Below, in pieces: positions 1-30,382 of a stretch of DNA of 32,000 bases. Under the pieces are notes generated by a model that ran no database searches, had not been told where the DNA came from, and worked only from the letters and a program-made list of their open reading frames with translations. Source of the DNA: Candidatus Iainarchaeum sp. (GTDB lineage Archaea > Iainarchaeota > Iainarchaeia > Iainarchaeales > JACQJH01). Location of the stretch: positions 210,001 to 242,000 of the forward strand of contig JACQJH010000001.1 of assembly GCA_016205145.1 (NCBI GenBank), in the 5' to 3' direction. Position numbers and translations under genes: made by a program. The number at the start of each line of letters is the position of its first letter. The first letter of the stretch is position 1.

Positions 1-659
1 ATCTTTTCCTTCTGCTTTTCAAGCTGCCCGGCGATTTTTTCCTTTTCCTTGTTCAGCCTGGCAAGGCAAACATTTTGAATCAGTTCGGGTGTCATGTCCT
101 TCAAAGTCAGGCTGTCAGGGTCATAGCCTGCGTCCCTCATGTCCTTTTTCTTGTCAGCAGGAATTGGCATTTTTCCTTCGCTGATCTGGCTACAGAACAA
201 CTGCGAATCAGAATCGCACGAGCTTGACTCCGCGTCTATTGTGCCGCACGCGGTTGGAGCATCCTCTTTTATCGCGCCGACAATTTCGTTTGTCAAAGCG
301 TCCCTGTCGGTTTTGCAGCCCTCAATGAACTTTGCGCTGTTTGATGCAACCCAAGTGTAGGCGGTCGTCATTGCCTTTGTGACGTCCTCTTCAGCCACGT
401 ATTGCGAGTCGGCAAAGCTTGATGAAACATAGCTGTCTATTCCCATGCCGGAATCAAAGCCGAATCCGCCAAATCCCTGCTCGTCTTGCTGTCCGCCGAA
501 GCCTTGCTGCTGGCCGAAACCCTGCTGGAAACCCTGGCCTTGGCCCTGCTGCGGAAACTGTCCCTGCTGCGGAAACTGCGCAAACGCCAAGCCGGCAAAA
601 ACCGCGAACGCGAAAAGCAATGCGATTATTCCAATGCCTTTTTTCTGCAAATTGACCAC
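1..659 (-). CDS. Secreted or membrane-anchored hypothetical protein with a Gln/Gly-rich linker. Only the N-terminal part is in the window; the ORF runs off at position 1 and is absent from the ORF track.
   Basis: Manual minus-strand translation from GTG 659 (alternative TTG 665 or 650) gives VVNLQKKGIGIIALLFAFAVFAGLAFAQ, which is signal/TM-like. It continues FPQQGQFPQQGQGQGFQQGFGQQQGFGGQQ..., then ...TAYTWVASNSAKFIEGCKTDRDALTNEIV...CGTIDAESSSCDSDSQLFC.... The frame stays open to position 1. Confidence 0.6.
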   Translation of the reverse strand, partial: MVNLQKKGIGIIALLFAFAVFAGLAFAQFPQQGQFPQQGQGQGFQQGFGQQQGFGGQQDEQGFGGFGFDSGMGIDSYVSSSFADSQYVAEEDVTKAMTTAYTWVASNSAKFIEGCKTDRDALTNEIVGAIKEDAPTACGTIDAESSSCDSDSQLFCSQISEGKMPIPADKKKDMRDAGYDPDSLTLKDMTPELIQNVCLARLNKEKEKIAGQLEKQKEK

Positions 660-710
660 TGTCAAAGCAAAGTTTAATCCCCTATTTAAGCTTTGCTTTT
701 TAGCTTTTCG

Positions 711-773
711 AACCGGCGGTTTCGTCCGCCGGGTCCGAAACCAAGGCGTATTGCTGATGCAATACGCCGAGTA
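711..773 (+). repeat. Hairpin-module repeat, locus E: CCGGCGG-TTTCGT-CCGCCGG hairpin, GTCCGAAACCAA linker, GGCGTATTGC-TGAT-GCAATACGCC hairpin, then GAGTA.
   Basis: Read directly. Positions 714-749 are an exact 36-nt reverse-complement match to 21122-21157. Confidence 0.85.
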
Positions 774-841
774 TGCCAGCATATGATGCAAAAGTGCACA
801 CTTGGCTTGTATTTGTGCCTGCAACCGGAATCGTTTTTCTT

Positions 842-2023
842 TTACCAGCCGTAGCTTTTCGCGCGCGAATACTGCAGGGCTGAGAAAACGCGGATTGTTT
901 TGAGCTTTGGCAGTTTTGGGTTTGCCAGCAGCCTCAATCCGACAAGCAGCTTGTCCGAAAACGTCAGGCTTGTCAGGTTTTCCGGCATTATGCCGCCCAT
1001 TTCGTTCAGCTTTTTCTCGTCGAAAGTGTAAAGGCTTTTCTTTCCGCCGATAATGGAACCGTAATTGGGGAACTCCTTTCTCCATTTTTCAGAGTATTCC
1101 GCGAAAGCCTTTTCCGAAAAATCGTTTTGCTTCGCCGCCTTCGCAATCGTTTCCGCGCAAAGCCTGCCTGACATGAGTGAAAGAGCCGTGCCGCCTTCAA
1201 ACATCGGGGACGTAAAACCTGCCGCATCTCCGACCAAGGCAAACCTTTCCCCGCACGTTTTCGAAACCGGCCCGGATTCCGGTATGAGCCCGCCGAAAGT
1301 TTTTGTCACCTTCTTGTCCTCGAGCCGCATTTCCCTGATGAAACCGTCAAGGAATGCCTTTGCTTTTCCCTTTTCATTCGTAACTATTCCGACATTCGCC
1401 CTGTTCCCGCTTTTCGGGATAATCCAGGCATAACCGTGCGGCGCGAATTTGGTGGAAAAAAAGAAGTCGATTAAATCCTGGTCGACCAGGCCGTGCATTT
1501 CAACCTGCACGCCAATCACTGTTTCAGGTTTCCTGTTGATTCCGGTTTTCTGCGAAAAAACCGACGTCGGGCCGGAAGCATCGACAACGGTTTTGGCAAT
1601 GAATGTTCCGCCGCTGGTCTGTATGCGCCATCCTTCCGTGTCTTTCACGAACTGTTCCGCCCGCGTGTTCAAAAAGATTTTTGCGCCGGCTGCCTGCGCC
1701 TCGCCCACAATGAACCTTTCAAACTTGTGCTTTTCGAGCACAAAGCCTTTTTCGCGCACAACGGAATTCTTTCCGTTCGGAAAAATCACGCGGATGCCTT
1801 CAACGCGCTTTGAAATCACGCTGTCGGGCAGCTTCAGGCCGATCCTGTCAACCGCCAGTTCGGAAAGGCATTCGCCGCAGTGCACGGGTTCGCCAACCGC
1901 GGGGTGCTCTTCAATCACGCAAACACTGAGGCCGAGCCTGGCGCAATGCAATGCAGTTGAGCCTCCGGCCGGGCCCGAGCCTATGACCGCGACATCAAAA
2001 ACGTTTTCAGCCAAGCAAAACAA
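842..2023 (-). CDS. Geranylgeranyl reductase family FAD-dependent oxidoreductase (digeranylgeranylglycerophospholipid reductase-like).
   Basis: 393-aa ORF with N-terminal FAD motif VAVIGSGPAGG, ...HCGECLS..., and LVGDAAGFTSPMFEGG. Length and motif order are typical of archaeal GGR. The start is TTG. Confidence 0.9.
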   Translation of the reverse strand: MFCLAENVFDVAVIGSGPAGGSTALHCARLGLSVCVIEEHPAVGEPVHCGECLSELAVDRIGLKLPDSVISKRVEGIRVIFPNGKNSVVREKGFVLEKHKFERFIVGEAQAAGAKIFLNTRAEQFVKDTEGWRIQTSGGTFIAKTVVDASGPTSVFSQKTGINRKPETVIGVQVEMHGLVDQDLIDFFFSTKFAPHGYAWIIPKSGNRANVGIVTNEKGKAKAFLDGFIREMRLEDKKVTKTFGGLIPESGPVSKTCGERFALVGDAAGFTSPMFEGGTALSLMSGRLCAETIAKAAKQNDFSEKAFAEYSEKWRKEFPNYGSIIGGKKSLYTFDEKKLNEMGGIMPENLTSLTFSDKLLVGLRLLANPKLPKLKTIRVFSALQYSRAKSYGW

Positions 2024-2143: not shown

Positions 2144-3676
2144 TTAAGACCAGCAGTTTTTCACAGTGTATTCAAGCGAAGCGCTTGAGTCCGCTTCAAC
2201 GGGCACGGAGAACTCGAACGTGTACGCGTCCTTTTTCACGTACTCGAAGTTCGCCTTTGTTATCTGCGCGTTGCCGCCCGCGTTCTCGATTGCCTTCACT
2301 GTAATCTTCTCTTTCTTGTGGTTCCTTATGTCGACCTTGTACGATTGCACCGAGCAGGCCGGAAGGTTCTGCTGTTCAACCGTGGTTTTTTGCGCGGCAA
2401 TGTCGAATGCATAGCCGACAAACAGCTTCCTTTCCTCGTCTTTCGGAGTATGAGTTATGCTGTCTTCGCCCAGGAACTGCGCATTGCTTCCGTCGGCCTT
2501 GTAAACCCTCACAGTGCCGGCAGGCAATGGCATTCCGAGACTGCTTTTTTCGTCGTTCTTGAAGTTGACCATGACTTTAACGCTGTTCGCGCCATCCGAA
2601 TCGCTGCCCGTATAATAGTAGCGGTTGCCCTCGAAGACGAATTCCTTCTGCACTGCAACGCTTTTCGCGCGCAGCAGGGAAATCTGCTTCGACTCCTTGT
2701 CCAAAACGTCGGTTTTCCGGTCAAGCGTGTAAGTATGGTATTCGAAAGCGTTGGCCTGCGAAAAGCCTGGCGCGCTTCCCCCTGCGGCATCCGCTGCCTT
2801 GGATTCTGCCAGCATGGGCACAGGGTAGGCGTTTCTGCCCTGCAGATTCAGTTGTCCGGCAAGCAATGTGAGCGAGGCATTCCTGAAATCAATGCCGGTG
2901 CTGTTTGAAACAGTCACGTTTCCAGAAAAGTCCATTGCGGTCTCGTCATCATTGAGCTTTGCAACGTAGTCCGCGCTCCAGCCGAGGCCGCCGGTCAGAT
3001 AGCTGACATTGACTTTCCTGTTGCCGGAGCTTTCCGCGAAAACTTTGAGCACAAGCGTGGGCTTTGTCAGCAAACCGGGTTTCTGCCCGAACGAAACCGT
3101 TGAAACGTTCTGCAATGAAACTATGCCGTCCTGAGTTTCAAGGACTATGCCGTCGGAATGGCTCAGCAGCTTTCCGGTGTATGATTTCGCTTCCGCGCCG
3201 CCCTGCACTTCAACTGTTATGGTTTCGCCGACAAATTTTTCCAGCAAAGCCTGCCTTGACGCGGTATCATAATCGTAATTCTGTTCCGCTACGAAAGTTT
3301 CAGGGAACATGAGATCATTGAACAAAACCGTGCCCGTGTCGATGAGCTGTGAAACGTCGCTGAAGTTCACTAGATTCAGGCCCTTTTCAAGGGAAATCTC
3401 CCTTGTCTCGTTCACCAGGCCGAGATTGCCCTGGTAGATTGTAAGCGCGAGGCCTGCATTGTCCGGCAGGCTCTGGACTTCCTGTGCAAACGCCTGCAGG
3501 TAGGCTTTCGGCCTTTCCGAGGAAACGACCTTCGAATACTCGCCTATCCTGTACTGCGGTGTTTCCTTCATTCCGGGGTTGAACAGCAATGCAACCACTC
3601 CGACAATGAAAATGACCGCGATGACCGCCAGCAGCTTTTTCGCAAAACCATTTTCCAGAAAATCCTTTCCAACCAT
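2144..3676 (-). CDS. DUF4139-like membrane-anchored protein.
   Basis: 510-aa ORF with an N-terminal TM helix (LLAVIAVIFIVGVVALLF). The central motif VSYLTGGLGWSADYVAKL resembles the conserved W-x-x-Y core of DUF4139 proteins. The family call is by eye only. Confidence 0.7.
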   Translation of the reverse strand: MVGKDFLENGFAKKLLAVIAVIFIVGVVALLFNPGMKETPQYRIGEYSKVVSSERPKAYLQAFAQEVQSLPDNAGLALTIYQGNLGLVNETREISLEKGLNLVNFSDVSQLIDTGTVLFNDLMFPETFVAEQNYDYDTASRQALLEKFVGETITVEVQGGAEAKSYTGKLLSHSDGIVLETQDGIVSLQNVSTVSFGQKPGLLTKPTLVLKVFAESSGNRKVNVSYLTGGLGWSADYVAKLNDDETAMDFSGNVTVSNSTGIDFRNASLTLLAGQLNLQGRNAYPVPMLAESKAADAAGGSAPGFSQANAFEYHTYTLDRKTDVLDKESKQISLLRAKSVAVQKEFVFEGNRYYYTGSDSDGANSVKVMVNFKNDEKSSLGMPLPAGTVRVYKADGSNAQFLGEDSITHTPKDEERKLFVGYAFDIAAQKTTVEQQNLPACSVQSYKVDIRNHKKEKITVKAIENAGGNAQITKANFEYVKKDAYTFEFSVPVEADSSASLEYTVKNCWS

Positions 3677-6597: not shown

Positions 6598-6608
6598 AAA
6601 AAGCAGGT

Positions 6609-6964
6609 TTACTCGGCGTGTCGCGCAGCGGCACGCCTTAATCCCGACGCAGGGGGCTCCGCCCCCTTGCAAACCCCTGAAACATTTACCGCTACTTACT
6701 CGGCGGTTCACAACGTGAACCGCCTTGGTTTCGGCACACGCGCCCGAAAGCGCGTTGTCCTTTGTTAATGCAAAAGCAGATGGGTACGGCGCAACAGCGA
6801 AATATCCGTCGTCGAGCCCGCTTGTGAAATCATCGCCATCAGGCGCAGCGCTATGCGAGCAAAGCGAGCGCAGGGGTTGCACCCCTTGCGAACCCTGCAA
6901 AGCATGCGTGGTGTTCCGCAGCAGCGCGAACACCACAAAGCGCACCAGCCGGGCGTGACGGCTT
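6609..6964 (-). repeat. Hairpin-module repeat, locus A. It is the longest composite and starts 1 nt after the tRNA-Asp 3' end.
   Basis: Minus-sense order of modules:
- AGCCG-TCACGCC-CGGCTGGTGCG.
- GTGGTGTTC...GAACACCAC hairpin.
- GCAAGGGG-TGCA-ACCCCTGCG hairpin.
- A linker.
- ...CCGAAACCAAGGCG-[GTTCAC GTT GTGAAC]-CGCCGAGTAA.
- AAATGTTTCAGGGG.
- GCAAGGGGG-CGGA-GCCCCCTGCG.
- AAGGCG-[TGCCGC TGC GCGACA]-CGCCGAGTAA. Confidence 0.85.
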
Positions 6965-7125
6965 CGCCCGCACCGGGAGTCGGACCCGGCCCACGGCCTC
7001 GCTGCATTGCAGTACTCCATAAAAGAAACTTTTCTTTCTTTTTGGGGTAAAGCACTTTTTCTTTCTTCGCAAGAAAGAAAAAGGGCTTCGACAGGGCCGT
7101 ATCCTAGCCGATAGACCATACGGGC
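6965..7125 (-). tRNA. tRNA-Asp (GTC) with an approximately 89-nt intron at or near position 37/38.
   Basis: Hand fold:
- Acceptor: GCCCGTA/TGCGGGC, discriminator G.
- D arm: GTCT-ATCGGCTA-GGAT.
- Anticodon stem: CGGCC/GGCCG; loop CTGTCGA.
- T arm: CCGGG-TCCGACT-CCCGG.
- Intron: about 7000-7088. A CUGU/GCAG 4-bp helix flanked by 3-nt bulges (BHB-like) can be drawn. Confidence 0.8.
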
Positions 7126-13454: not shown

Positions 13455-14006
13455 TTGGTTTATCATGGTGGTTTGTTGGACATACTGAAGGCTTTGGCCA
13501 ACTCCAACCGGCGCAACATGGTCCAGATTCTCCTCAAAAAGGAAACCCACATTGCCGCGCTCGCAAGGGAATTGAACATTTCCAATCCGGTTGCATTGAA
13601 GCACGCGCGCATTCTTGAGGATAACGGCCTGATTGAACGGGAAAAAGCGGGGAACACGCACATACTGCACATCCGCAAGGACGCGCTCAAGAAAATACGG
13701 CTGGCATCGGAGCTTTTTGAAAAGCCAATTTCTTTCAGCGTCGCGAAAGGCACTTTGCTTTTGGACGCGCTTTCAAAGGTCGATGGCCTCGAGATCGAGA
13801 ACACGAAACAGGGCGCGTTCATCAAGGCAATTGACGGCAAGGAAGGCTACTTTGTCTTTGAAATCAACGGCAAGTTTCCGACAAAGCCGATCGAGGAAAT
13901 CGAAATTTCCGGCAGGACGGAAATCGAGTTGAAGCGCCTTCTGCCCGTCATCGGAAAAAAAATCGTTTTCGAAACAGCCGGTTCCGTCCGGCTGGTCCGG
14001 GACTAA
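13455..14006 (+). CDS. ArsR-family winged-helix regulator fused to a DUF4430-like C-terminal domain.
   Basis: HTH region: LDILKALANSNRRNMVQILLKKETHIAALARELNISNPVALKHARILEDNGLIE. C-terminal part: GTLLLDALSKVDGLEIENTKQGAFIKAIDGKEGYFVFEINGKFPTKPIEEIEISGRTEIEL. The true start is probably TTG 13473 or 13476, after GGTGG. Confidence 0.75.
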   Translation: MVYHGGLLDILKALANSNRRNMVQILLKKETHIAALARELNISNPVALKHARILEDNGLIEREKAGNTHILHIRKDALKKIRLASELFEKPISFSVAKGTLLLDALSKVDGLEIENTKQGAFIKAIDGKEGYFVFEINGKFPTKPIEEIEISGRTEIELKRLLPVIGKKIVFETAGSVRLVRD

Positions 14007-14135
14007 GGCGTATCGTTGCAAAATCTTGGATTTTGCGACGTGCCCAGAATCTGTGGATTCTGGTGCATGCTTACGCAATACGCCGAGTAATTCTATTCCG
14101 CATTTCGGGGTTTTACGCGGGGGTGTCCCATGTGT
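14007..14135 (+). repeat. Hairpin-module repeat, locus D, an expanded version.
   Basis: The outer stem GGCGTAT...(GC)AATACGCC (14007-14084) encloses two inner hairpins, GCAAAATC-TTG-GATTTTGC and CCAGAATC-TGTG-GATTCTGG. It is followed by GAGTAA, CATTTCGGGG and a degenerate G/C hairpin. It fills the whole gap between two convergent genes. Confidence 0.8.
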
Positions 14136-15293
14136 TCACGCCTTTTCCAGCGCCTGCTTTAAGTCTTCAACCAAGTCGTCCGCGCTTTCCAAACCAACGG
14201 ACAAACGCACCATTGTCTCGGTTATGCCCGCTTTCCTGCGCTCGCTCTCCGGCAAAGCGCCGTGCGTCATCGCCCAAGGATATTCTATGAGGGATTCGAC
14301 CCCGCCAAGGCTCACTCCGAGAGTGAACAGATTGGTTGCAGCAAGAAACTTCTTCGCTGCAGCTGCGTTTCCTTTGAGTTCAATCGTTATTATGCCGCCA
14401 GTGCCTTTCATCTGCTTTTGCGCAAGGCCTTTCTGCGCAAAGCTTTTCAGGCCGGGATAAATGACGCGCTTCACTTTCGGATGCCTTTCAAGGAACTCCG
14501 CGATTGCCTGCGCGTTTTTTTCATGCTGCAGCATTCTCTGCTTCAAGGTCTTTATCCCGCGCAGGACAAGAAAGCAGTCCAAGGGCGAAGGCGTAGGGCC
14601 GAAGGCATTCTGCAAAAACTTCAGTTGCCTGTAAATCTTTTCGTCGTTGCATGCAATCGCGCCGCCGATGATGTCGGAATGGCCGTTGATGTACTTTGTC
14701 GTGCTGTGTATGACAATGTCGGCACCCAGGTCAAGCGGATTCTGGAAAACCGGTGACAGGAAAGTGTTGTCCACCGCCACAATCAGGCCTTTTTTGTGCG
14801 CGAGCCTTGAAATTTCCGCGATGTCAACAAGCTTCAGCAAAGGGTTTGTCGGGCTTTCAAGGTAAACCATTCCGGTGTTCGGCTTCAACGCCTTTTCAAG
14901 GCTTTCCGGTTCAGTCAGGTCCGCAAGCGAGTAATCAATGCCGAACTGCCTTTTGAATGTTTCCAGCAGCCTGAAAGTTCCGCCGTAAACATTGTCCACT
15001 GCAACAATGTGCCCGCCGCTTTTAAGCAGGCTCAGGCAGACCATTTCCGCGCCAAGGCCGGACGAGAACGCGAGGCCAAAGCGCGCGTTTTCAAGCGAGG
15101 CAACGCTTTTTTCCAGGGCATCCCTTGTCGGGTTTCCCGATCGCGAATAATCGTATCCCCGGTTTTTGTCAACCGAATCCTGTCTGAATGTTGACGACAG
15201 GTAAACTGGCGTCATGACCGCGCCGGTCAGGGGATCTGCGCCCGCTTCGTGGATCGCCCTGGTTTCGAAATCAAGCCGTTTGCCTTTAGCCAT
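14136..15293 (-). CDS. Cys/Met-metabolism PLP-dependent enzyme (cystathionine gamma-synthase/lyase or O-acylhomoserine sulfhydrylase family).
   Basis: 385-aa ORF. Motifs: YSRSGNPTRDALE, VDNTFLSPVFQNPL, and the PLP-lysine motif HSTTKYINGHSD. Confidence 0.9.
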   Translation of the reverse strand: MAKGKRLDFETRAIHEAGADPLTGAVMTPVYLSSTFRQDSVDKNRGYDYSRSGNPTRDALEKSVASLENARFGLAFSSGLGAEMVCLSLLKSGGHIVAVDNVYGGTFRLLETFKRQFGIDYSLADLTEPESLEKALKPNTGMVYLESPTNPLLKLVDIAEISRLAHKKGLIVAVDNTFLSPVFQNPLDLGADIVIHSTTKYINGHSDIIGGAIACNDEKIYRQLKFLQNAFGPTPSPLDCFLVLRGIKTLKQRMLQHEKNAQAIAEFLERHPKVKRVIYPGLKSFAQKGLAQKQMKGTGGIITIELKGNAAAAKKFLAATNLFTLGVSLGGVESLIEYPWAMTHGALPESERRKAGITETMVRLSVGLESADDLVEDLKQALEKA

Positions 15294-16630: not shown

Positions 16631-16756
16631 CCAAACAGCTTTTTCTCCGGCCTTGCGGCTGGGATTTGAAAAATAAAACAAAAAATAGAACAAAAAAAAC
16701 TTTTTGGGAAAAAATGCTTTTCCCAAACTGAAACCTTTAAACAGCCAATTTTTCAA

Positions 16757-17051: not shown

Positions 17052-17069
17052 CTGAAACCTTTAAAAGCC
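17052..17069 (+). promoter_or_regulatory. BRE/TATA-like promoter (CTGAAACCTTTAAAAGCC) about 150 nt upstream of the DEAD-box helicase start.
   Basis: The same 14-mer CTGAAACCTTTAAA recurs at 16728-16741, and AAACCTTAAAAGCC occurs at 16991-17004. Confidence 0.45.
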
Positions 17070-19355: not shown

Positions 19356-19365
19356 GTGTAATAAT

Positions 19366-19523
19366 TCCCTCCTCCCTGATTTGCACAGGGGATCTCACCG
19401 TTGCCGCTTTTTTCGCGGCGCAACAGCGTTCTTTCGAACCTGCTGCCCAGCCATTCAAGGCAGTGCACAAGAGCGTGCACGAAAATCTACAGCGGTGCGT
19501 GTTAGCTACTACACCAAGGAGGG
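19366..19523 (-). tRNA. tRNA-Tyr (GTA) with an approximately 85-nt intron.
   Basis: Hand fold:
- Acceptor: CCCTCCT/AGGAGGG (C1-G72), discriminator A.
- D arm: GTGT-AGTAGCTA-ACAC.
- Anticodon stem: CACCG/CGGTG; loop CTGTAGA.
- Variable region: AGATC.
- T arm: CCCTG-TGCAAAT-CAGGG.
- Intron: between loop and 3' stem, with a drawable BHB (CUGU/GCGG helix, AGA and CAA bulges). Confidence 0.85.
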
Positions 19524-19605
19524 CTCGGCATGCTGCCGAGCGTGCAGCCTTGTGGTATCGCTGACGCGATACCACGCGTGCCCGCCCAAAACAGTTCCTG
19601 CCGGC
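19524..19605 (-). other. Structured 5' leader of tRNA-Tyr (two hairpins). The TATA-like TTTAAAA is at 19629-19635.
   Basis: Minus sense: GTGGTATCGC-GTCA-GCGATACCAC, then GCTCGGCA-GCA-TGCCGAGC abutting tRNA nucleotide 1. The first hairpin is homologous to modules at 21349-21382 and 6902-6939. Confidence 0.55.
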
Positions 19606-19640
19606 TAATTATTTGTTTCACTCAATCGTTTTAAATGTTT

Positions 19641-20542: not shown

Positions 20543-20983
20543 TTAAACCTTTGTTTTCATTACGCGTTTCATGCCGGGAATTTCCACGCTTGAATAGTCG
20601 ACGCTCAGTCCTGCTTTTCCAAGCGCTTTTTTGAGCGCGTAAACCTTGCAAAACCCCGCCAACTCTTTCTGCTCGTTTTTCTGCAGGCTTTCGACTGCGG
20701 TTATCTCGTTTATCACGCCGTTGACTTTTCCGGAGGACGCTGCCTTCAGGATTTCCGCGATTTCGGCTTCCGATTTTCCGGCCGGCAGTTCGGCCAGCAT
20801 TGCGTCAAGCTTTTTCAAATCCACAAGCTTTCCGAGGTTCTGCTCCACTTTCTTGTCCACGCTTATCGTCAGGCTTGCCAGGAATTCCATTACCGTGCGC
20901 GGGTCGGTTTTCTCCTCTATCTTGAGTTTCTTGATTGCGACCCAGTCATCGTAGTTTGCGATTAATTGAATGCTCTTGTCCAC
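20543..20983 (-). CDS. Hypothetical soluble protein.
   Basis: 146-aa ORF, probably in an operon with the PAP2 gene (26-nt gap). No motif recognised. Confidence 0.55.
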   Translation of the reverse strand: MDKSIQLIANYDDWVAIKKLKIEEKTDPRTVMEFLASLTISVDKKVEQNLGKLVDLKKLDAMLAELPAGKSEAEIAEILKAASSGKVNGVINEITAVESLQKNEQKELAGFCKVYALKKALGKAGLSVDYSSVEIPGMKRVMKTKV

Positions 20984-21030
20984 GCTCTCACCTTGTAAAA
21001 ATAAGTTTCTGGTGGTTAAAAATCCACATG

Positions 21031-21160
21031 CTTACTCGGCGTTTCACAACGCAGGGGCCTTTGCCCCTTGCAAACCCCCGAAATATTTGTTGTGTCCTAC
21101 TCGGCGTGTCGCATCAGCGGCACGCCTTGGTTTCGGACCCGGCGGACGAAACCGCCGAGA
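21031..21160 (-). repeat. Hairpin-module repeat, locus B, which forms the tRNA-Lys 3' trailer.
   Basis: Minus-sense order of modules:
- CGGCGG-TTTCGT-CCGCCG hairpin.
- GTCCGAAACCAAGGCG-[TGCCGC TGAT GCGACA]-CGCCGAGTA.
- AAATATTTCGGGGG.
- GCAAGGGGC-AAA-GGCCCCTGCG.
- A truncated GTTGTGAAACGCCGAGTAAG. Confidence 0.85.
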
Positions 21161-21234
21161 CGAGCCCGGAGGGATTTGAACCCTCGACACGCGGATTAAG
21201 AGTCCGCTGCTCTACCAGGCTGAGCTACGGGCCC
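21161..21234 (-). tRNA. tRNA-Lys (CTT).
   Basis: GGGCCCGTAGCTCAGCCTGGTAGAGCAGCGGACTCTTAATCCGCGTGTCGAGGGTTCAAATCCCTCCGGGCTCG. Canonical cloverleaf, loop CTCTTAA, no encoded CCA. Confidence 0.95.
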
Positions 21235-21284
21235 AATTAGGGCGGTTAAATTTCGCTGGTCATTAAACTTGTTATTAATTCACT

Positions 21285-21307
21285 TATGCCCACTGATTTT
21301 AAACTTT
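21285..21307. repeat. Exact 23-nt direct repeat, copy 1 (TATGCCCACTGATTTTAAACTTT).
   Basis: Identical to 21553-21575. The minus sense AAAGTTTAAAATCAGTGGGCATA contains a TATA-like TTTAAAA. Confidence 0.9.
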
Positions 21308-21339
21308 TGTCAATGGGCTATTGGTCTTTTGGGGTTCGT

Positions 21340-21552
21340 GTTGGGCATGTGCGGTATCGGCGGTAGCGAAGATACCACAAACAGCACTGGCTTTTGCGTG
21401 ATGGCTTGCCCGGCGTATTGCGATACGCAATACGCCTTGGTTCCGCACGCAGGGGGCTCTGCCCCCTCGCACGCCCCCGAAACATTTACTACGATCACTC
21501 GGCGTATTGCGATTAGCAATACGCCTTTGTTCGCACCAGCCGGGCGTTCGGC
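21340..21552 (-). repeat. Hairpin-module repeat, locus C, about 1.5 composite units bracketed by the 23-nt repeats.
   Basis: Minus-sense order of modules:
- AGCCG-AACGCC-CGGCTGGTGCG.
- AAAGGCG-[TATTGC TAATC GCAATA]-CGCCGAGTG.
- AAATGTTTCGGGGG.
- GCGAGGGGGC-AGA-GCCCCCTGCG.
- CCAAGGCG-[TATTGC GTATC GCAATA]-CGCC.
- GGTATC...GATACC hairpin. Confidence 0.85.
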
Positions 21553-21575
21553 TATGCCCACTGATTTTAAACTTT
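21553..21575. repeat. Exact 23-nt direct repeat, copy 2.
   Basis: Identical to 21285-21307. It lies 10 nt beyond the tRNA-Thr 3' end. Confidence 0.9.
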
Positions 21576-21584
21576 GCAGTGCCA

Positions 21585-21658
21585 AGCCTTGGGAGGGATT
21601 TGAACCCTCGACCAGCAGTTTACAAAACTGCGGCTCTACCAGGCTGAGCTACCAAGGC
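21585..21658 (-). tRNA. tRNA-Thr (TGT).
   Basis: GCCTTGGTAGCTCAGCCTGGTAGAGCCGCAGTTTTGTAAACTGCTGGTCGAGGGTTCAAATCCCTCCCAAGGCT. Anticodon stem GCAGT/ACTGC, loop TTTGTAA. Confidence 0.95.
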
Positions 21659-21741
21659 GGCTGTAGAATTGTTGTTTGGGCAATTTATTAAAAGATTGTC
21701 GGGGTTGCCCTAGCGCATTTTGTTTGCTTGTTTTGGCCGTT

Positions 21742-22290
21742 TCAGAATGACAGTTTTTCGCGCTTTCTTTTTTCGCCTATCAGGCCGAAAATGAGTTCCT
21801 GCGTTCCTTCCGGGTCGGGAACCGCAAGCAATGAGCCTTCGGCGCCGAACCTGTTGTTGTATGTTATCTGGCCGGCAAGGCTTTGGATGTGCACGCTTCC
21901 GAAGCCGAAAATGCTTTCTGCAAAGGAGCGCGAGATTATGGCGTCTGAAATCCTTTCAAGCGGAATGGAGTTTACCTTGTAGCCTATGAAGCCGCTTTTC
22001 TGGATTATTCTCTTATTGGTTATCCAATAGTGCTGCTTGTTGTAGCGCCAGAATGCTCCAAGCAACGGTATGAGGATAATGCCAACAAAGCCCAGGGAGA
22101 AAACCGTCCACAGCAGTCCGCCGGGCGAGCCCGAAAAAATGCCTCCGAATATAAGCGGAGTGAAGAAAATTCCTATTAAGAGGAACAGGATTATTCCTGG
22201 CACGAGCCAATACCAGAGCAGGCCGCCCACAGGCTTGATTTCCTTGATTATTTTTTCGCCTTCCTGCAAATTGAACGGCCGGTTTTCCAT
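21742..22290 (-). CDS. Membrane protein with a bacterial-type PH domain (YdbS/DUF304-like).
   Basis: 182-aa ORF with two TM helices, then ...HYWITNKRIIQKSGFIGYKVNSIPLERISDAIISRSFAESIFGFGSVHIQS... Confidence 0.7.
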   Translation of the reverse strand: MENRPFNLQEGEKIIKEIKPVGGLLWYWLVPGIILFLLIGIFFTPLIFGGIFSGSPGGLLWTVFSLGFVGIILIPLLGAFWRYNKQHYWITNKRIIQKSGFIGYKVNSIPLERISDAIISRSFAESIFGFGSVHIQSLAGQITYNNRFGAEGSLLAVPDPEGTQELIFGLIGEKRKREKLSF

Positions 22291-27090: not shown

Positions 27091-27236
27091 TGCCCCGGCC
27101 GGGATTCGAACCCGGGTCGCGGCCTCACCCCGCTCTTGAATTTTTTGGAAAATCCTTGAGAGGGCCGAGTGCTTTCGGCAACAGCTGCTTTTTTTTATAA
27201 AAACAAACCGTTTTAGCCGGACTACACCACCGGGGC
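27091..27236 (-). tRNA. tRNA-Glu (CTC) with two introns: about 40 nt in the D-loop/D-stem junction and about 31 nt at 37/38.
   Basis: Hand fold:
- Acceptor: GCCCCGG/CCGGGGC, discriminator A.
- D arm: GTGT-AGTCCGGCTAA-[intron about 27173-27212]-GCAC.
- Anticodon: CGGCC-CTCTCA-[intron about 27126-27156]-A-GGCCG.
- T arm: CCGGG-TTCGAAT-CCCGG.
- Length: spliced length 75 nt.
- Downstream: a T-run follows the 3' end. Confidence 0.85.
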
Positions 27237-27878
27237 ACTGCAGAATTTTTTGAACCTGTTTATGTGCTTTTTGTTGCTGAACCCGATTTCAGTGAAATAA
27301 CGCAGGACTTCTTTAGAATCTCCCATTGAGCACTGCATTGTATTCCTGTCCTTCTTTTGGGTCCATTTAGATACTCTGTAGCCCAATATTTTAAATGCCT
27401 TTGTTATGCTGCTTTGGATTGTAGGCGATGCCGTGGCGAACCAGATTGTGGGCGTTTTGTGCCTGCGCGTTTTCGGGTAAACGCTTCCGTCAGTGTCAAT
27501 CAATCCCCTGACACAGGCTTTAAGGTAACCGCTTTTTCCAAGAACCCAGCAGGGAATTGCCGCGCCATTCGTGGTTTTATTGCCGTTTTTTATGCCAAAA
27601 TGCATCAGCGTGTGCACCAAATTTTTGCTTTGCTTGAATATGACGACAGCGTTTCCGGTTTTTGGAAATTTTATGCTGAATTCGGTTCCAAACACTTTTT
27701 TGAACAGGCCCGAAGTATAATTTGTCAGATAATCAAAATCGTTCCCGCGATGGCCTATAATTCTTATTTGGTAAATGCTTTTTTCTTTTATAACCTGGCA
27801 GTTTCCGTCGCCAAGCATTATGCCGATAATTTCCGCAAGCTCCGCGCTTTTCTTTTTTGCAAGCAATTTCGGTTTCAT
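27222..27878 (-). CDS. Free-standing double-motif LAGLIDADG homing endonuclease.
   Basis: Motifs IIGIMLGDGN and VRGLIDTDGS lie about 100 aa apart. The start is ambiguous: ATG 27878, ATG 27926, or GTG 27998, which overlaps the U32 stop as GTGA. The stop TAG (27222-27224) lies inside tRNA-Glu. Confidence 0.85.
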   Translation of the reverse strand: MKPKLLAKKKSAELAEIIGIMLGDGNCQVIKEKSIYQIRIIGHRGNDFDYLTNYTSGLFKKVFGTEFSIKFPKTGNAVVIFKQSKNLVHTLMHFGIKNGNKTTNGAAIPCWVLGKSGYLKACVRGLIDTDGSVYPKTRRHKTPTIWFATASPTIQSSITKAFKILGYRVSKWTQKKDRNTMQCSMGDSKEVLRYFTEIGFSNKKHINRFKKFCSAPVV

Positions 27879-27994
27879 CGGCAAGAATTTGCCGTTCTTC
27901 CGCGGCTGCAGCCGGCAATTACCCATAATGTACTGTTGTTTTTGTGGACAAAAGGGGTTTGCCAAGTGGCTTTCCCCTGATTCTTGATTTGGCC

Positions 27995-30382
27995 TCACAC
28001 CGCCTTTTCATAGCTTGCGCGCGTGAACGGCATGTCCGCAAAGCCTTTTCCACCGCCAAGCTTTTCCTTGACGGATGCGATGATTTTTTCCGCGTCTTCG
28101 CCTGAAACGCTGCCAACATCGACCCTGACAACATCGGCAATCGCTTCGAGCTTTTCAAGCTCCGGAACCATGTTCATCGCCATAGGATTGTAGAGGTGCG
28201 TGCGCTCGCTTTCATCCAGTTCAACAGCATATTTCCACTTGTTCCTGTCGATGAGAGTATACCTGCCTTTTTTTGGCAATATTTTGGTTTCGATTATCAT
28301 TATTTCCGGAAGTTCGAATGCGACAAGCTCAATCTTTGCGTCCGTGCGTTTCCGTGTAGCGGAAAGCTGTTTGAGCGTCAGTTCCCCTGACGGCAAAATC
28401 CTTTCGACCTGCGGGTTTTTGGCGAAAAAGTTTGCGGCAATGGAATTGAACACGTTCAAGTTTTTGCCGATGATGATTTTTTCAAAGCCCTGCCCCGCAA
28501 GCCAGTGATAGAGGCCGAGGTTGTTGCATTCGATTGCCGCGCCCGCAAGCTCCGCGCTTTTGCCTTTCACTGTTTCCGACAGCTTTTTGGCGAGCGCTGC
28601 AAGCTCATGGTCCTTCATTATCACGGGCGTTGAAAGCACAAGCTGCATTGCGTGCTCGGAGCAGATTTTTTGCGCTTCAAGCAATGTTTTTTTGTCCGCG
28701 TTTTCCGGGAACGAAACCGCGCAGGGCTTTGCCTGCAGGAAAGCATTCAACTGCTTGAGCGAGGAAACCTTGACTGAGATGGCGGCCTTTCTGCCTTTTT
28801 CATGCCCCGCGTCCTTCAGCAGTTCTTTTTTCCGTTCCTCGAATTTTTTAGCATCAACGTTTTTCCTGAAACCTTCAAGCTTTTTTTTGGTGAACGCGTC
28901 GATGGCTTTCCTGCGCAGGTCGTTGAGCTTGCTGAACGGAACCATGAGGCCCTCGTCGACCTTGACGCTGATGCTTTTCAATTCAAACAATGTTTCGCCG
29001 GTCTTTGAAAGCTTTTCCTCGGCAACCTTTTCTCCGAGCGGGATTTTTTCGGCTTTTTTCGGCGTGAAATCCGAGACGACTTCCGCGGAGGTTTGCCCGT
29101 CAAAAGCCCTTATCCTGAATTCTTTGTGTGAAATTTTCGCTTCAAGGTTCACTTCCGGCTTTTTCATGGTCTTGATTGACGAGTAAGCAAGGTCGGTGAG
29201 CTGTTTGGACTGCACCTTGAAGATTGTCCACCCTTTTTTGATTTCGTGCGGAACCTCGATTTCGACTATTTCGTTTGCAAACGCGTGTTCCATTTCCTTT
29301 CCGTTTTTCAGGATTTTTTTGGCAAAAAAGTCCACTCTCTCGTCGCCCAGCTTGTGCGACAATTTGTCCCATTTCCTGACGCGCTCGAACAATTGGACCT
29401 TTATCTTGCCGTCGGCGTATTCAAGCACTTTCGCGACGCGTATTCCGACCTTTCCCGGATAATCCTTTTTTATGATGTCGTCGTTCTTGCCGTTGAAGTG
29501 CCCTGCCGAAAAGTCGCGGTTGTAGGCTATGCGCAGCTGCTTTATCTCGTCTTCCGAAACCGCTTCTTTTCCGCCGAACGCGTTATCGATTGCTTTCCTG
29601 TAAACCCTTGTCGCAATTGCAACATATTCAGTGCCCTTTTTCCTTCCCTCGATTTTGAATGCCGAAACGCCTGCTTCGGCAAGCTGTTTTATCATGGGCA
29701 CCGCGAAAAGGTCCTTCTGCGACAGCAGATAGCCTTCGTCAATCCTTTTCCCGCCTTCTTCCAAATCGTAAAACAGGCGGCAGTTCTGCGCGCACCTTCC
29801 GCGGTTGCCGGAGCGCTTGAACGAAACGCTGCTCGCAAAGCACTGCCCCGAATATGCTACACACATCGCGCCATGCACAAAGCACTCAACCTCTATTCCG
29901 GTCCCAACCCGTGATTTCATTTCATGGATTTCTTCAACCGAGTTTTCCCTTGCCAGCACCGCGCGCTTGATGCCAAGATCTTTTGCAAACAGCAGTCCTT
30001 CGGTGTTGTGGATTGTCATCTGCGTGCTTGCATGCAATCTCAGCCCGGGCAAAAGCTCGTGCAGGCTGTGCGCCAGGCCGACGTCCTGCACGATTACAGC
30101 GTCAATGCCATGCTCGTACGCACTCTTCGCCATGTCGATTGCCGCGCCGATCTCGAACTCGTTGAGCAGAATGTTCAATGTAAGGTAGGCTTTCCTGCCG
30201 TGCAAATGCAAATAGTCGATTGCTTCTTTCACCTGCTCAGGCGAAAAGTTTTGCGCGCCGATCCTTGCATTGAACGCCTGGTAGCCGAAGTAAACAGCGT
30301 CCGCGCCGTTTGCGACCGCAGCTTTCATGTGCTCAAAGCTGCCCGCCGGGGCGACAAGCTCCGGTTTGATTTGTTTCACCAT
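27995..30382 (-). CDS. Peptidase U32 family protein, long form with a C-terminal extension.
   Basis: 795-aa ORF. U32 signature region EVECFVHGAMCVAYSGQCFAS. The N-terminus KPELVAPAGSFEHMKAAVANGADAVYFG is typical. Confidence 0.9.
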   Translation of the reverse strand: MVKQIKPELVAPAGSFEHMKAAVANGADAVYFGYQAFNARIGAQNFSPEQVKEAIDYLHLHGRKAYLTLNILLNEFEIGAAIDMAKSAYEHGIDAVIVQDVGLAHSLHELLPGLRLHASTQMTIHNTEGLLFAKDLGIKRAVLARENSVEEIHEMKSRVGTGIEVECFVHGAMCVAYSGQCFASSVSFKRSGNRGRCAQNCRLFYDLEEGGKRIDEGYLLSQKDLFAVPMIKQLAEAGVSAFKIEGRKKGTEYVAIATRVYRKAIDNAFGGKEAVSEDEIKQLRIAYNRDFSAGHFNGKNDDIIKKDYPGKVGIRVAKVLEYADGKIKVQLFERVRKWDKLSHKLGDERVDFFAKKILKNGKEMEHAFANEIVEIEVPHEIKKGWTIFKVQSKQLTDLAYSSIKTMKKPEVNLEAKISHKEFRIRAFDGQTSAEVVSDFTPKKAEKIPLGEKVAEEKLSKTGETLFELKSISVKVDEGLMVPFSKLNDLRRKAIDAFTKKKLEGFRKNVDAKKFEERKKELLKDAGHEKGRKAAISVKVSSLKQLNAFLQAKPCAVSFPENADKKTLLEAQKICSEHAMQLVLSTPVIMKDHELAALAKKLSETVKGKSAELAGAAIECNNLGLYHWLAGQGFEKIIIGKNLNVFNSIAANFFAKNPQVERILPSGELTLKQLSATRKRTDAKIELVAFELPEIMIIETKILPKKGRYTLIDRNKWKYAVELDESERTHLYNPMAMNMVPELEKLEAIADVVRVDVGSVSGEDAEKIIASVKEKLGGGKGFADMPFTRASYEKAV

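Follow-up and report, generated by a model that had tools for sequence, protein, structure and literature searches.

Between a tRNA-Thr gene and a tRNA-Lys gene of an archaeal genome, one 23-nt sequence with a TATA-like core is found twice, on either side of a short non-coding block. What is this block, and why does the same sequence stand at both of its ends? Two answers were given in the initial annotation: either the copies are tRNA-type promoters, one of which drives the block as an independent non-coding gene, or they are the junctions left by a duplication or insertion. Both answers are considered here with the help of the window, that is, the whole 32-kb stretch of DNA that was analysed, and of related contigs. 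The host is an archaeon of DPANN type; proteins homologous to those encoded on either side of the locus are named after Diapherotrites, Micrarchaeota, Nanoarchaeota and similar groups.

Layout of the tRNA-Thr/tRNA-Lys Locus

Two exact copies of the 23-mer TATGCCCACTGATTTTAAACTTT are present in the window, one at 21285-21307 and the other at 21553-21575, and no third match is found there even with three mismatches allowed; the number of copies expected by chance is 0 (100 shuffles). The exact direct repeats described in the initial annotation, bracketing 245 bp (21308-21552) between the two tRNA genes, are thereby confirmed. Both tRNA genes lie on the minus strand (hereafter the tRNA strand), on which the order is tRNA-Thr, 9 nt, copy A of the 23-mer, the block, copy B, 50 nt and tRNA-Lys.

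The intronless tRNA-Thr(TGT) occupies 21585-21658 (ARAGORN; 67.9 bits with Rfam), and its TATA-like box TTTTAATAAA (21684-21693) has its centre about 30.5 nt upstream of where the mature tRNA begins. Copy A (AAAGTTTAAAATCAGTGGGCATA, 21553-21575) starts 9 nt past this tRNA and has its TTTAAA at 21566-21571; no annotated gene follows it within 120 nt. Copy B (21285-21307) has its TTTAAA at 21298-21303, centred 66.5 nt before tRNA-Lys, from which it is separated by the leader AAGTTTAATGA (21235-21284), so that the annotated distance of about 50 nt holds. This leader contains a TATA-like box of its own, TTTAATGA at 21260-21267, centred at −29.5. The tRNA-Lys(CTT) itself lies at 21161-21234 (ARAGORN; 68.2 bits with Rfam), its ends differing slightly by tool (21159/61-21234/5), and is followed by a trailer (21030-21160) composed of H0 (21130-21158), H1 (21100-21128), H2 (21050-21083) and a second CGCCGAGTA (21033-21041), the hairpin modules being described below. 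In a scan for T runs, the tRNA strand has no run of at least four T between tRNA-Thr and 21022; the first T5 run after tRNA-Thr, at 21018-21022, is likely the terminator of the whole tRNA-Thr/tRNA-Lys unit.

In composition, the 23-mer consists of an A-rich upstream flank, the TATA box TTTAAAA and 12 further nucleotides. Its edges are sharp: the copies agree in 23/23 positions and are little alike outside them, which would be expected of a conserved module and of a junction duplication alike.

The Block and the Dispersed Hairpin Modules

Of the block, 142 bp belong to hairpin modules (H0, H1 and H2), which are short and GC-rich, and the remaining 103 nt form a unique part (U103). It begins with the H0-type module GCCGAACGCCCGGCTGGTGCGAACA (21528-21552), whose core CCGGCTGGTGCG recurs at 6941-6952(-) within another H0-type module that begins directly after tRNA-Asp. 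Next comes an 89-nt insert (21439-21527), seen as an alignment indel against the relatives L086-88 and containing an H1 hairpin (21498-21527), a spacer and an H2 hairpin (21448-21482); it is flanked by a 33-nt direct repeat of H1 with a spacing of 89 nt. A second hairpin of the H1 type, H1′ (AAGGCGTATTGCG-TAT-CGCAATACGCCGGG), lies at 21409-21438. U103 (21308-21410) closes the block; at its end, GCCCATTGA (21310-21318) repeats TCAGTGGGC of the 23-mer in inverted orientation. No second copy of U103 is present in the window or in 17 relevant loci. On the tRNA strand, H1 has the layout AAGGCG, a 10-bp stem-loop and CGCCGAG, while H2 reads TTTCGGGGG...GCGAGGGGGC-AGA-GCCCCCTGCG.

The repeat modules that the initial annotation had seen in the block are real, but they are not private to it, since the window has four other sites: 21030-21158, 713-775(+), 6608-6960(-) and 13975-14125(+). 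All five loci are intergenic, the last of them overlapping the final ~30 nt of a mechanically listed ORF (13455-14006). The H1 stem is maintained by compensatory changes: in this family, 4/10 stem pairs are changed on both sides, pairing is kept in 96% of the cells, and the covariation score is not attained by any shuffle. Logan contigs assembled from this species break off within the block, as expected of a dispersed repeat. Searches with Rfam 15, both on the window and permissively on 20900-21800 (E ≤ 10), gave no match in the block; in the latter region the two tRNAs score, and everything else is below threshold with E ≥ 0.03.

For comparison, the bacterial repetitive extragenic palindromes (REP) and their mosaic clusters (BIME) (PMC2817692, PMC3733652) are likewise short GC-rich imperfect palindromes with conserved flanks (CCAAGGCG / CGCCGAGTAA in the present family), found only between genes, at several loci and in mosaic arrays, with stems kept by compensatory changes and with copy numbers that vary between close relatives. 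The differences are that the present host is an archaeon, that the units of an array share one orientation (H0-H1-H2-H1) instead of alternating, that no clear GTAG or CGTC tag is seen, and that three of the five module arrays directly follow a tRNA gene or a 23-mer. There is no IS200/RAYT-like ORF in the window. The modules belong to a dispersed family of REP/BIME-like repeats, confined to intergenic DNA, whose gain and loss between relatives is still going on. The literature search returned papers on REP/BIME and on archaeal MITEs, none of them on such repeats in Diapherotrites or DPANN.

Several further observations concern these repeats. At 14005-14087 (+), an H1 hairpin has small hairpins nested in its loop (CCAGAATC..GATTCTGG and AAAATC..GATTTT), and the same nested types occur at another locus in relatives (L086, ~3540-3620); this suggests that several palindromic repeat families may be interleaved. 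The tRNA-Asp(GTC) at 6965-7125 (-), at whose 3′ end an H0-type module starts directly, contains an 89-nt intron; it was missed by default ARAGORN and by Rfam, and was found by intron-tolerant ARAGORN with manual splicing. An attempt to assign the strand of the modules by asking whether the hairpin mismatches are G·U or C·A was abandoned, the cases being too few and in conflict with the array orientation.

Promoter-like Character of the 23-mer

In archaea, BRE/TATA promoters serve genes of stable RNAs, and tandem promoters ahead of tRNA and rRNA operons are among them. The 23-mer resembles such promoters in its TTTAAA(A) after an A-rich stretch, and the locus resembles them in the related TTTAAT box found ~30 nt before both tRNAs and in the three related boxes standing in tandem ahead of tRNA-Lys. 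It is unlike them in that copy B lies at −66 and not at −30, and in that no annotated gene stands behind copy A.

The window itself provides the standard by which the 23-mer can be judged. Although the listed genes cover 78% of the window, 14 of its 16 TTTAAA hexamers are intergenic, and six of the 16 are centred about 28 nt (26.5-32.5 nt) before a start codon (the gene starts at 15293, 15937, 19316, 20516, 22290 and 24711). Because of this spacing, the mRNAs of the host genome would mostly be leaderless. The core of the 23-mer, AAAAG-TTTAAAA, matches the genome's own promoter signature, its flanks are like those of gene promoters in the window, and the same motif stands upstream of window genes such as PAP2 (AACAAAGGTTTAAAGG). 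The claim that the 23-mer contains a TATA-type core thus agrees very well with the standard of the host, and by that standard it is reasonable to call the sequence promoter-like. The hexamer TTTAAA reads the same on both strands, however, and its direction is not fixed by the bases around it.

The more specific claim of a tRNA-type promoter at copy B is not supported. The copy B hexamer (−66.5) is not at the distance of a tRNA promoter, the boxes proper to the two tRNAs being at −29.5 (tRNA-Lys, TTTAATGA) and −30.5 (tRNA-Thr). Copy B lies ~36 nt further upstream than the canonical tRNA TATA box, and it is not needed for tRNA-Lys, because this gene already has such a box. A transcript with a long leader, or one of the spacer, is still conceivable. 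As for copy A, a start about 28 nt past it would land within the H0 hairpin.

Related motifs are found elsewhere in the window. The sequence AAGTTTAA occurs four times, three of them in the tRNA-Thr/tRNA-Lys spacer on the tRNA strand and the fourth ahead of another H0-H1 array. The fourth is part of AAAGTTTAAT at 669-678 (+), about 35 nt upstream of the same-strand H0-H1 array at 713-775 (+), and the layout of 669-775 (+), with AAAGTTTAAT first and the array behind it, echoes that of copy A followed by H0. Another duplicated promoter-like motif, CTGAAACCTTTAAA, is found at 16728-16741 and 17052-17065 (+), 324 nt apart, in a T-rich and largely gene-poor stretch around a small zinc-ribbon gene.

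Relatives of the Locus and Their Conservation

Relatives were obtained by an exact scan of JGI metagenomes with the 23-mer, which gave one contig (L085), and by look-ups of the neighbouring DUF2666 protein, which gave more. In a collection of species-representative genomes, a tRNA-Thr pattern had 0 matches and no close relative was found; a pyrophosphatase query of the same collection returned only relatives of ≤64% identity from many phyla, without synteny.

Three contigs (L086-88) are ~89-91% identical to the window overall, with 22% divergence at fourfold sites. They have the same duplicated arrangement, copy A with one mismatch (TTTAAAC) and copy B with 23/23, and they are without the 89-nt H1-spacer-H2 piece. 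The contigs L085 and L089 form a sister lineage, ~80% identical to the window overall, which has a single 23-mer upstream of tRNA-Lys and no block; here too the sequence of copy B is conserved (23/23). The order in L085 is tRNA-Thr(UGU) with a 32-nt intron, a LAGLIDADG_3 ORF of 351 aa on the opposite strand, the single 23-mer, the same leader as in the window (48/50), tRNA-Lys, and H0-H1 only. The contig of L089 starts inside the LAGLIDADG region, short of tRNA-Thr, and from that ORF on agrees with L085 in its arrangement; L085 is the only sister contig that includes tRNA-Thr, and no 23-mer stands directly after it. The tRNA-Lys trailer of the window is ~65 nt longer than that of the sister lineage, the additional part being H2 and the second CGCCGAGTA. 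In distant relatives (65-71% protein identity), the neighbourhood of tRNA-Thr and DUF2666 is kept, and tRNA-Lys, the 23-mer and the modules are missing, for which reason footprinting with these sequences was dropped.

The initial annotation had proposed to look among relatives for an empty site with a single 23-mer. Relatives with one copy and relatives with two both exist. A single-copy relative without the block is present in the sister lineage, with the right flank conserved, and the duplicated arrangement is shared by L086-88. A clean empty site would have intact flanks and read tRNA-Thr-TGGCACTGC-23mer-AGTGAATT; in L085 and L089, the left flank of the 23-mer is the region of the LAGLIDADG gene, whose similarity to the window is marginal. 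As the two copies are common to lineages ~10% apart, the duplication is no fresh accident and predates this divergence. The hairpin modules, for their part, are gained and lost at the locus, and direct repeats of module sequence stand on both sides of every such indel. A possible homology between U103 and the sister DNA upstream of its 23-mer was also considered and set aside as marginal: the anchored score was attained by 11-28 of 1000 shuffles, and local alignment gave p ~0.09.

The distribution of identity along the locus is uneven. Between the window and L086, it is 22/23 in copy A, 25/25 in H0, 28/28 in H1′, 103/103 in U103 (as in all of L086-88), 23/23 in copy B, 49/50 in the leader and 73/74 in tRNA-Lys, and it falls to 70% in the tRNA-Lys trailer; the tRNA-Thr cassette has 75%, the flanking genes 75-91% and other intergenic pieces 92-96%. 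From copy A through tRNA-Lys there are 3 mismatches in 326 nt with respect to L086-88, and directly upstream of copy A the identity falls to 75%. At a divergence of 5%, the probability of at most 2 mismatches in the 252 non-tRNA nucleotides is 2.5e-4. Against L089, the 210 nt starting at the 23-mer are 98% identical, and the leader is identical in 48/50 positions. In the comparisons with these two relatives, it is with the first bases of the 23-mer, at its 5′ edge, that conservation becomes high. A pairing of leader and trailer around tRNA-Lys (AACCGCC/GGCGGTT) was tried as well and rejected, not being kept in L086.

This identity of 99-100% fits selection on a unit beginning at the promoter, and a recent recombination tract could equally give it. 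Such a tract is conceivable because the locus is a mosaic: tRNA-Thr(UGU), compared over window positions 21576-21680 (-), has three very different alleles here (that of the window, that of L086-88 with many compensatory changes, and that of L085 with the 32-nt intron), and the neighbouring bPH_2 gene is, like the tRNA-Thr cassette, 75% identical to L086, against ~90% for other genes. The 61 nt upstream of the tRNA-Thr cassette are again 96.5% conserved. Since there are only two alleles of the block, identical in U103, selection and a recombination tract are inseparable in this comparison. What the relatives do indicate is that the block is dispensable, because it is absent in the sister lineage and an insertion of 89 nt within it is tolerated.

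A Proposed Duplication of a Promoter Module in One tRNA Unit

The reading that we prefer, with a probability of about one half, is that the two 23-mers are paralogous promoter modules in a single tRNA-Thr–spacer–tRNA-Lys transcription unit, situated at a recombination hot spot. The 23-mer would be the promoter module of the tRNA-Lys gene unit, and in the lineage of the window a second, paralogous copy would have come to stand 9 nt after tRNA-Thr, at the head of the 245-bp non-coding spacer. One transcription unit would then have several starts: at the tRNA-Thr TATA box, at copy A (predicted near 21540), at copy B (predicted near 21272) and at the proximal TATA box of tRNA-Lys. Because no oligo-T run is found before tRNA-Lys, any transcript begun at copy A would continue through that gene; and because no oligo-T terminator precedes 21022, the spacer would be made as the 3′ trailer of tRNA-Thr and the 5′ leader of tRNA-Lys and be removed by RNase P and RNase Z.

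The second 23-mer would most likely have arisen by local segmental duplication or by recombination at a tRNA hot spot, and not by transposition. That the locus is such a hot spot is indicated by the three tRNA-Thr alleles and by the LAGLIDADG gene in the same gap of the sister lineage. LAGLIDADG_3 ORFs directly beside tRNA genes are seen in the window at 27222-27998 (-) and in L089 at 90-1145 (-): the first abuts the tRNA at 27091-27236 (-), which has a long intron, and the second, 30% identical to it, fills the tRNA-Thr/tRNA-Lys gap of the sister.

On this reading, the block is a variable spacer composed largely of dispersed hairpin repeats, with no demonstrable stand-alone gene. The initial view of a separate transcription unit of 200-250 nt is not supported: no run of at least four T occurs before 21022, 142 of the 245 bp belong to dispersed modules, of which 89 bp are missing in the close relatives, and Rfam has no match.

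Alternative Explanations

The insertion reading of the initial annotation takes the 23-mers as TSD- or att-like junction repeats, produced when the block was inserted upstream of tRNA-Lys as a non-autonomous element or as an ectopic patch copied in during break repair, so that copy A would be without function. We regard it as unlikely, though a good deal of the locus speaks its language. The repeat is exact with sharp edges; in the sister lineage the block is missing and the 23-mer is single; the first module of the block is of a type that adjoins the 3′ ends of tRNAs at other sites; the other indels of the locus are also flanked by direct repeats (33-nt H1 repeats for the 89-nt piece, CGCCGAGTA for the 65-nt one); and LAGLIDADG endonuclease genes, which adjoin tRNA genes in this clade, could supply the breaks. 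Against this, 23 bp is very long for a target-site duplication, those of usual transposases being far shorter. The block is without terminal inverted repeats, its left end being GCCGAACG... and its right end ...CCCATTGACA; neither of the two inverted pairs inside it joins its ends, and the right end pairs only with the 23-mer itself. U103 is single-copy in the window and in the fetched loci, where only the short modules recur, and a Pfam scan of 20 window ORFs found no integrase or transposase. An att site would not overlap the tRNA, as the repeat starts 9 nt after tRNA-Thr. Scans of viral contigs gave 0 matches for the 23-mer and for U103, and the module pattern had three chance matches within coding sequence.

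The flanks of the repeat tell against an insertion as well. The single-copy relative does not offer a clean empty site, since a LAGLIDADG gene lies to the left of its 23-mer. The 13 nt next to that 23-mer on this side (GCCGCATTTGGCA) are no less similar to the flank of copy B (GCCCATTGACA), where the supposed insert ends, than to the flank of copy A. In addition, the copies are identical or 1 nt apart across ~10% divergence, whereas the adjacent arm bases differ (Fisher p=0.007, hand alignment).

Among known elements, prokaryotic MITEs with target-site duplications have been described in Sulfolobus, Halobacterium and Haloquadratum (review PMC10969869). The block is like them in being short, non-coding, set between identical direct repeats, and present or absent among relatives; it is unlike them in having no terminal inverted repeats, a duplication that at 23 bp is too long, and a U103 that is single-copy in the DNA searched. 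The att sites of archaeal integrative elements are similar in their direct repeats of some twenty-odd bp beside a tRNA gene and in the variability of the locus between relatives. Here, in contrast, the 23-mer and the tRNA do not overlap, the copies enclose no more than 245 bp of host-type repeats, and neither an integrase nor a viral match accompanies them. In summary, the exact flanking repeats and the single-copy relative favour the att/TSD alternative, and the missing integrase and terminal inverted repeats count against it.

The preferred reading, that of paralogous promoter modules in one unit, must also be weighed against an independent functional ncRNA gene, with copy A as its promoter and with U103 and the hairpins as its mature RNA. 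A consensus TATA box does stand directly upstream, U103 is more conserved than the neighbouring tRNA (103/103 across ~10% divergence), and the predicted fold is far more stable than that of shuffled sequences (z=-5.0 in the window and z=-4.1 in L086). The low folding energy comes largely from the repeat hairpins, however, and the two available alleles are identical in U103, which leaves no covariation test possible. No Rfam family matches even at E ≤ 10; no signature of C/D, H/ACA, RNase P, SRP or tRNA halves was seen by eye on either strand; no terminator precedes tRNA-Lys; the sister lineage does without the block; and the 89-nt indel lies inside the supposed gene. The proposal of the initial annotation that the block is an independent non-coding gene is thus quite improbable.

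A different ncRNA candidate lies at ~19365-19604 (-), between PAP2 and Fic. It is conserved, apparently structured and without an Rfam match, and shows compensatory changes relative to L086 and L089, e.g., CCCCTG..CAGGG versus CCCCAG..CTGGG. A TTTAAA box is found at 19630-19635, and just upstream the hairpin modules differ between the window and its relatives.

A more far-reaching idea, for which we see little chance, is that the 23-mer is the head of exchangeable cassettes (23-mer plus block, and 23-mer plus leader, tRNA-Lys and hairpin trailer) that would move or be homogenised between diverged DPANN lineages through recombination at the 23-mer. The LAGLIDADG endonucleases whose genes adjoin tRNA genes in this clade might set off such events, and U103 would be a new, strongly constrained RNA made together with tRNA-Lys. 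The idea would account for the near-perfect identity that starts exactly at the 5′ edge of the 23-mer in both comparisons.

Finally, it is very improbable that a ~35-bp palindrome (GCCCATTGA-N13-TCAGTGGGC) stands here with the 23-mer as its loop and 3′ arm, serving as a regulator site around the TATA box or as another hairpin module: a 9-bp inverted arm does stand directly upstream of copy B, with a hairpin more stable than shuffles (z=-3.5), and partial arms are found upstream of copy A in the window and L086, but at copy A the hairpin has little stability (z=-1.6 for the window and -1.1 for L086), the only three TCARTGGGC sites of the window are all at the tRNA-Thr/tRNA-Lys locus, and the operator was dropped as a candidate, being neither conserved nor predicted as a hairpin in the sister L089 (z=0.03).

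Significance of the Locus

All the elements of the locus are of known kinds, namely archaeal TATA promoters, REP/BIME-like repeats and the plasticity of tRNA loci, and it opens no new class of system. Its value for annotation lies in the leaderless promoter geometry, in tRNAs with long introns that standard tools miss, and in conserved non-coding segments. The one feature worth pursuing is the puzzling identity of 99-100% that the non-coding block shows between relatives. If the reading of two paralogous promoter modules in one tRNA unit is true, the locus would be a compact natural example of promoter copying and hairpin-repeat expansion in the tRNA clusters of a reduced DPANN genome, and such genomes would carry a REP/BIME-like family that breaks short-read assemblies.
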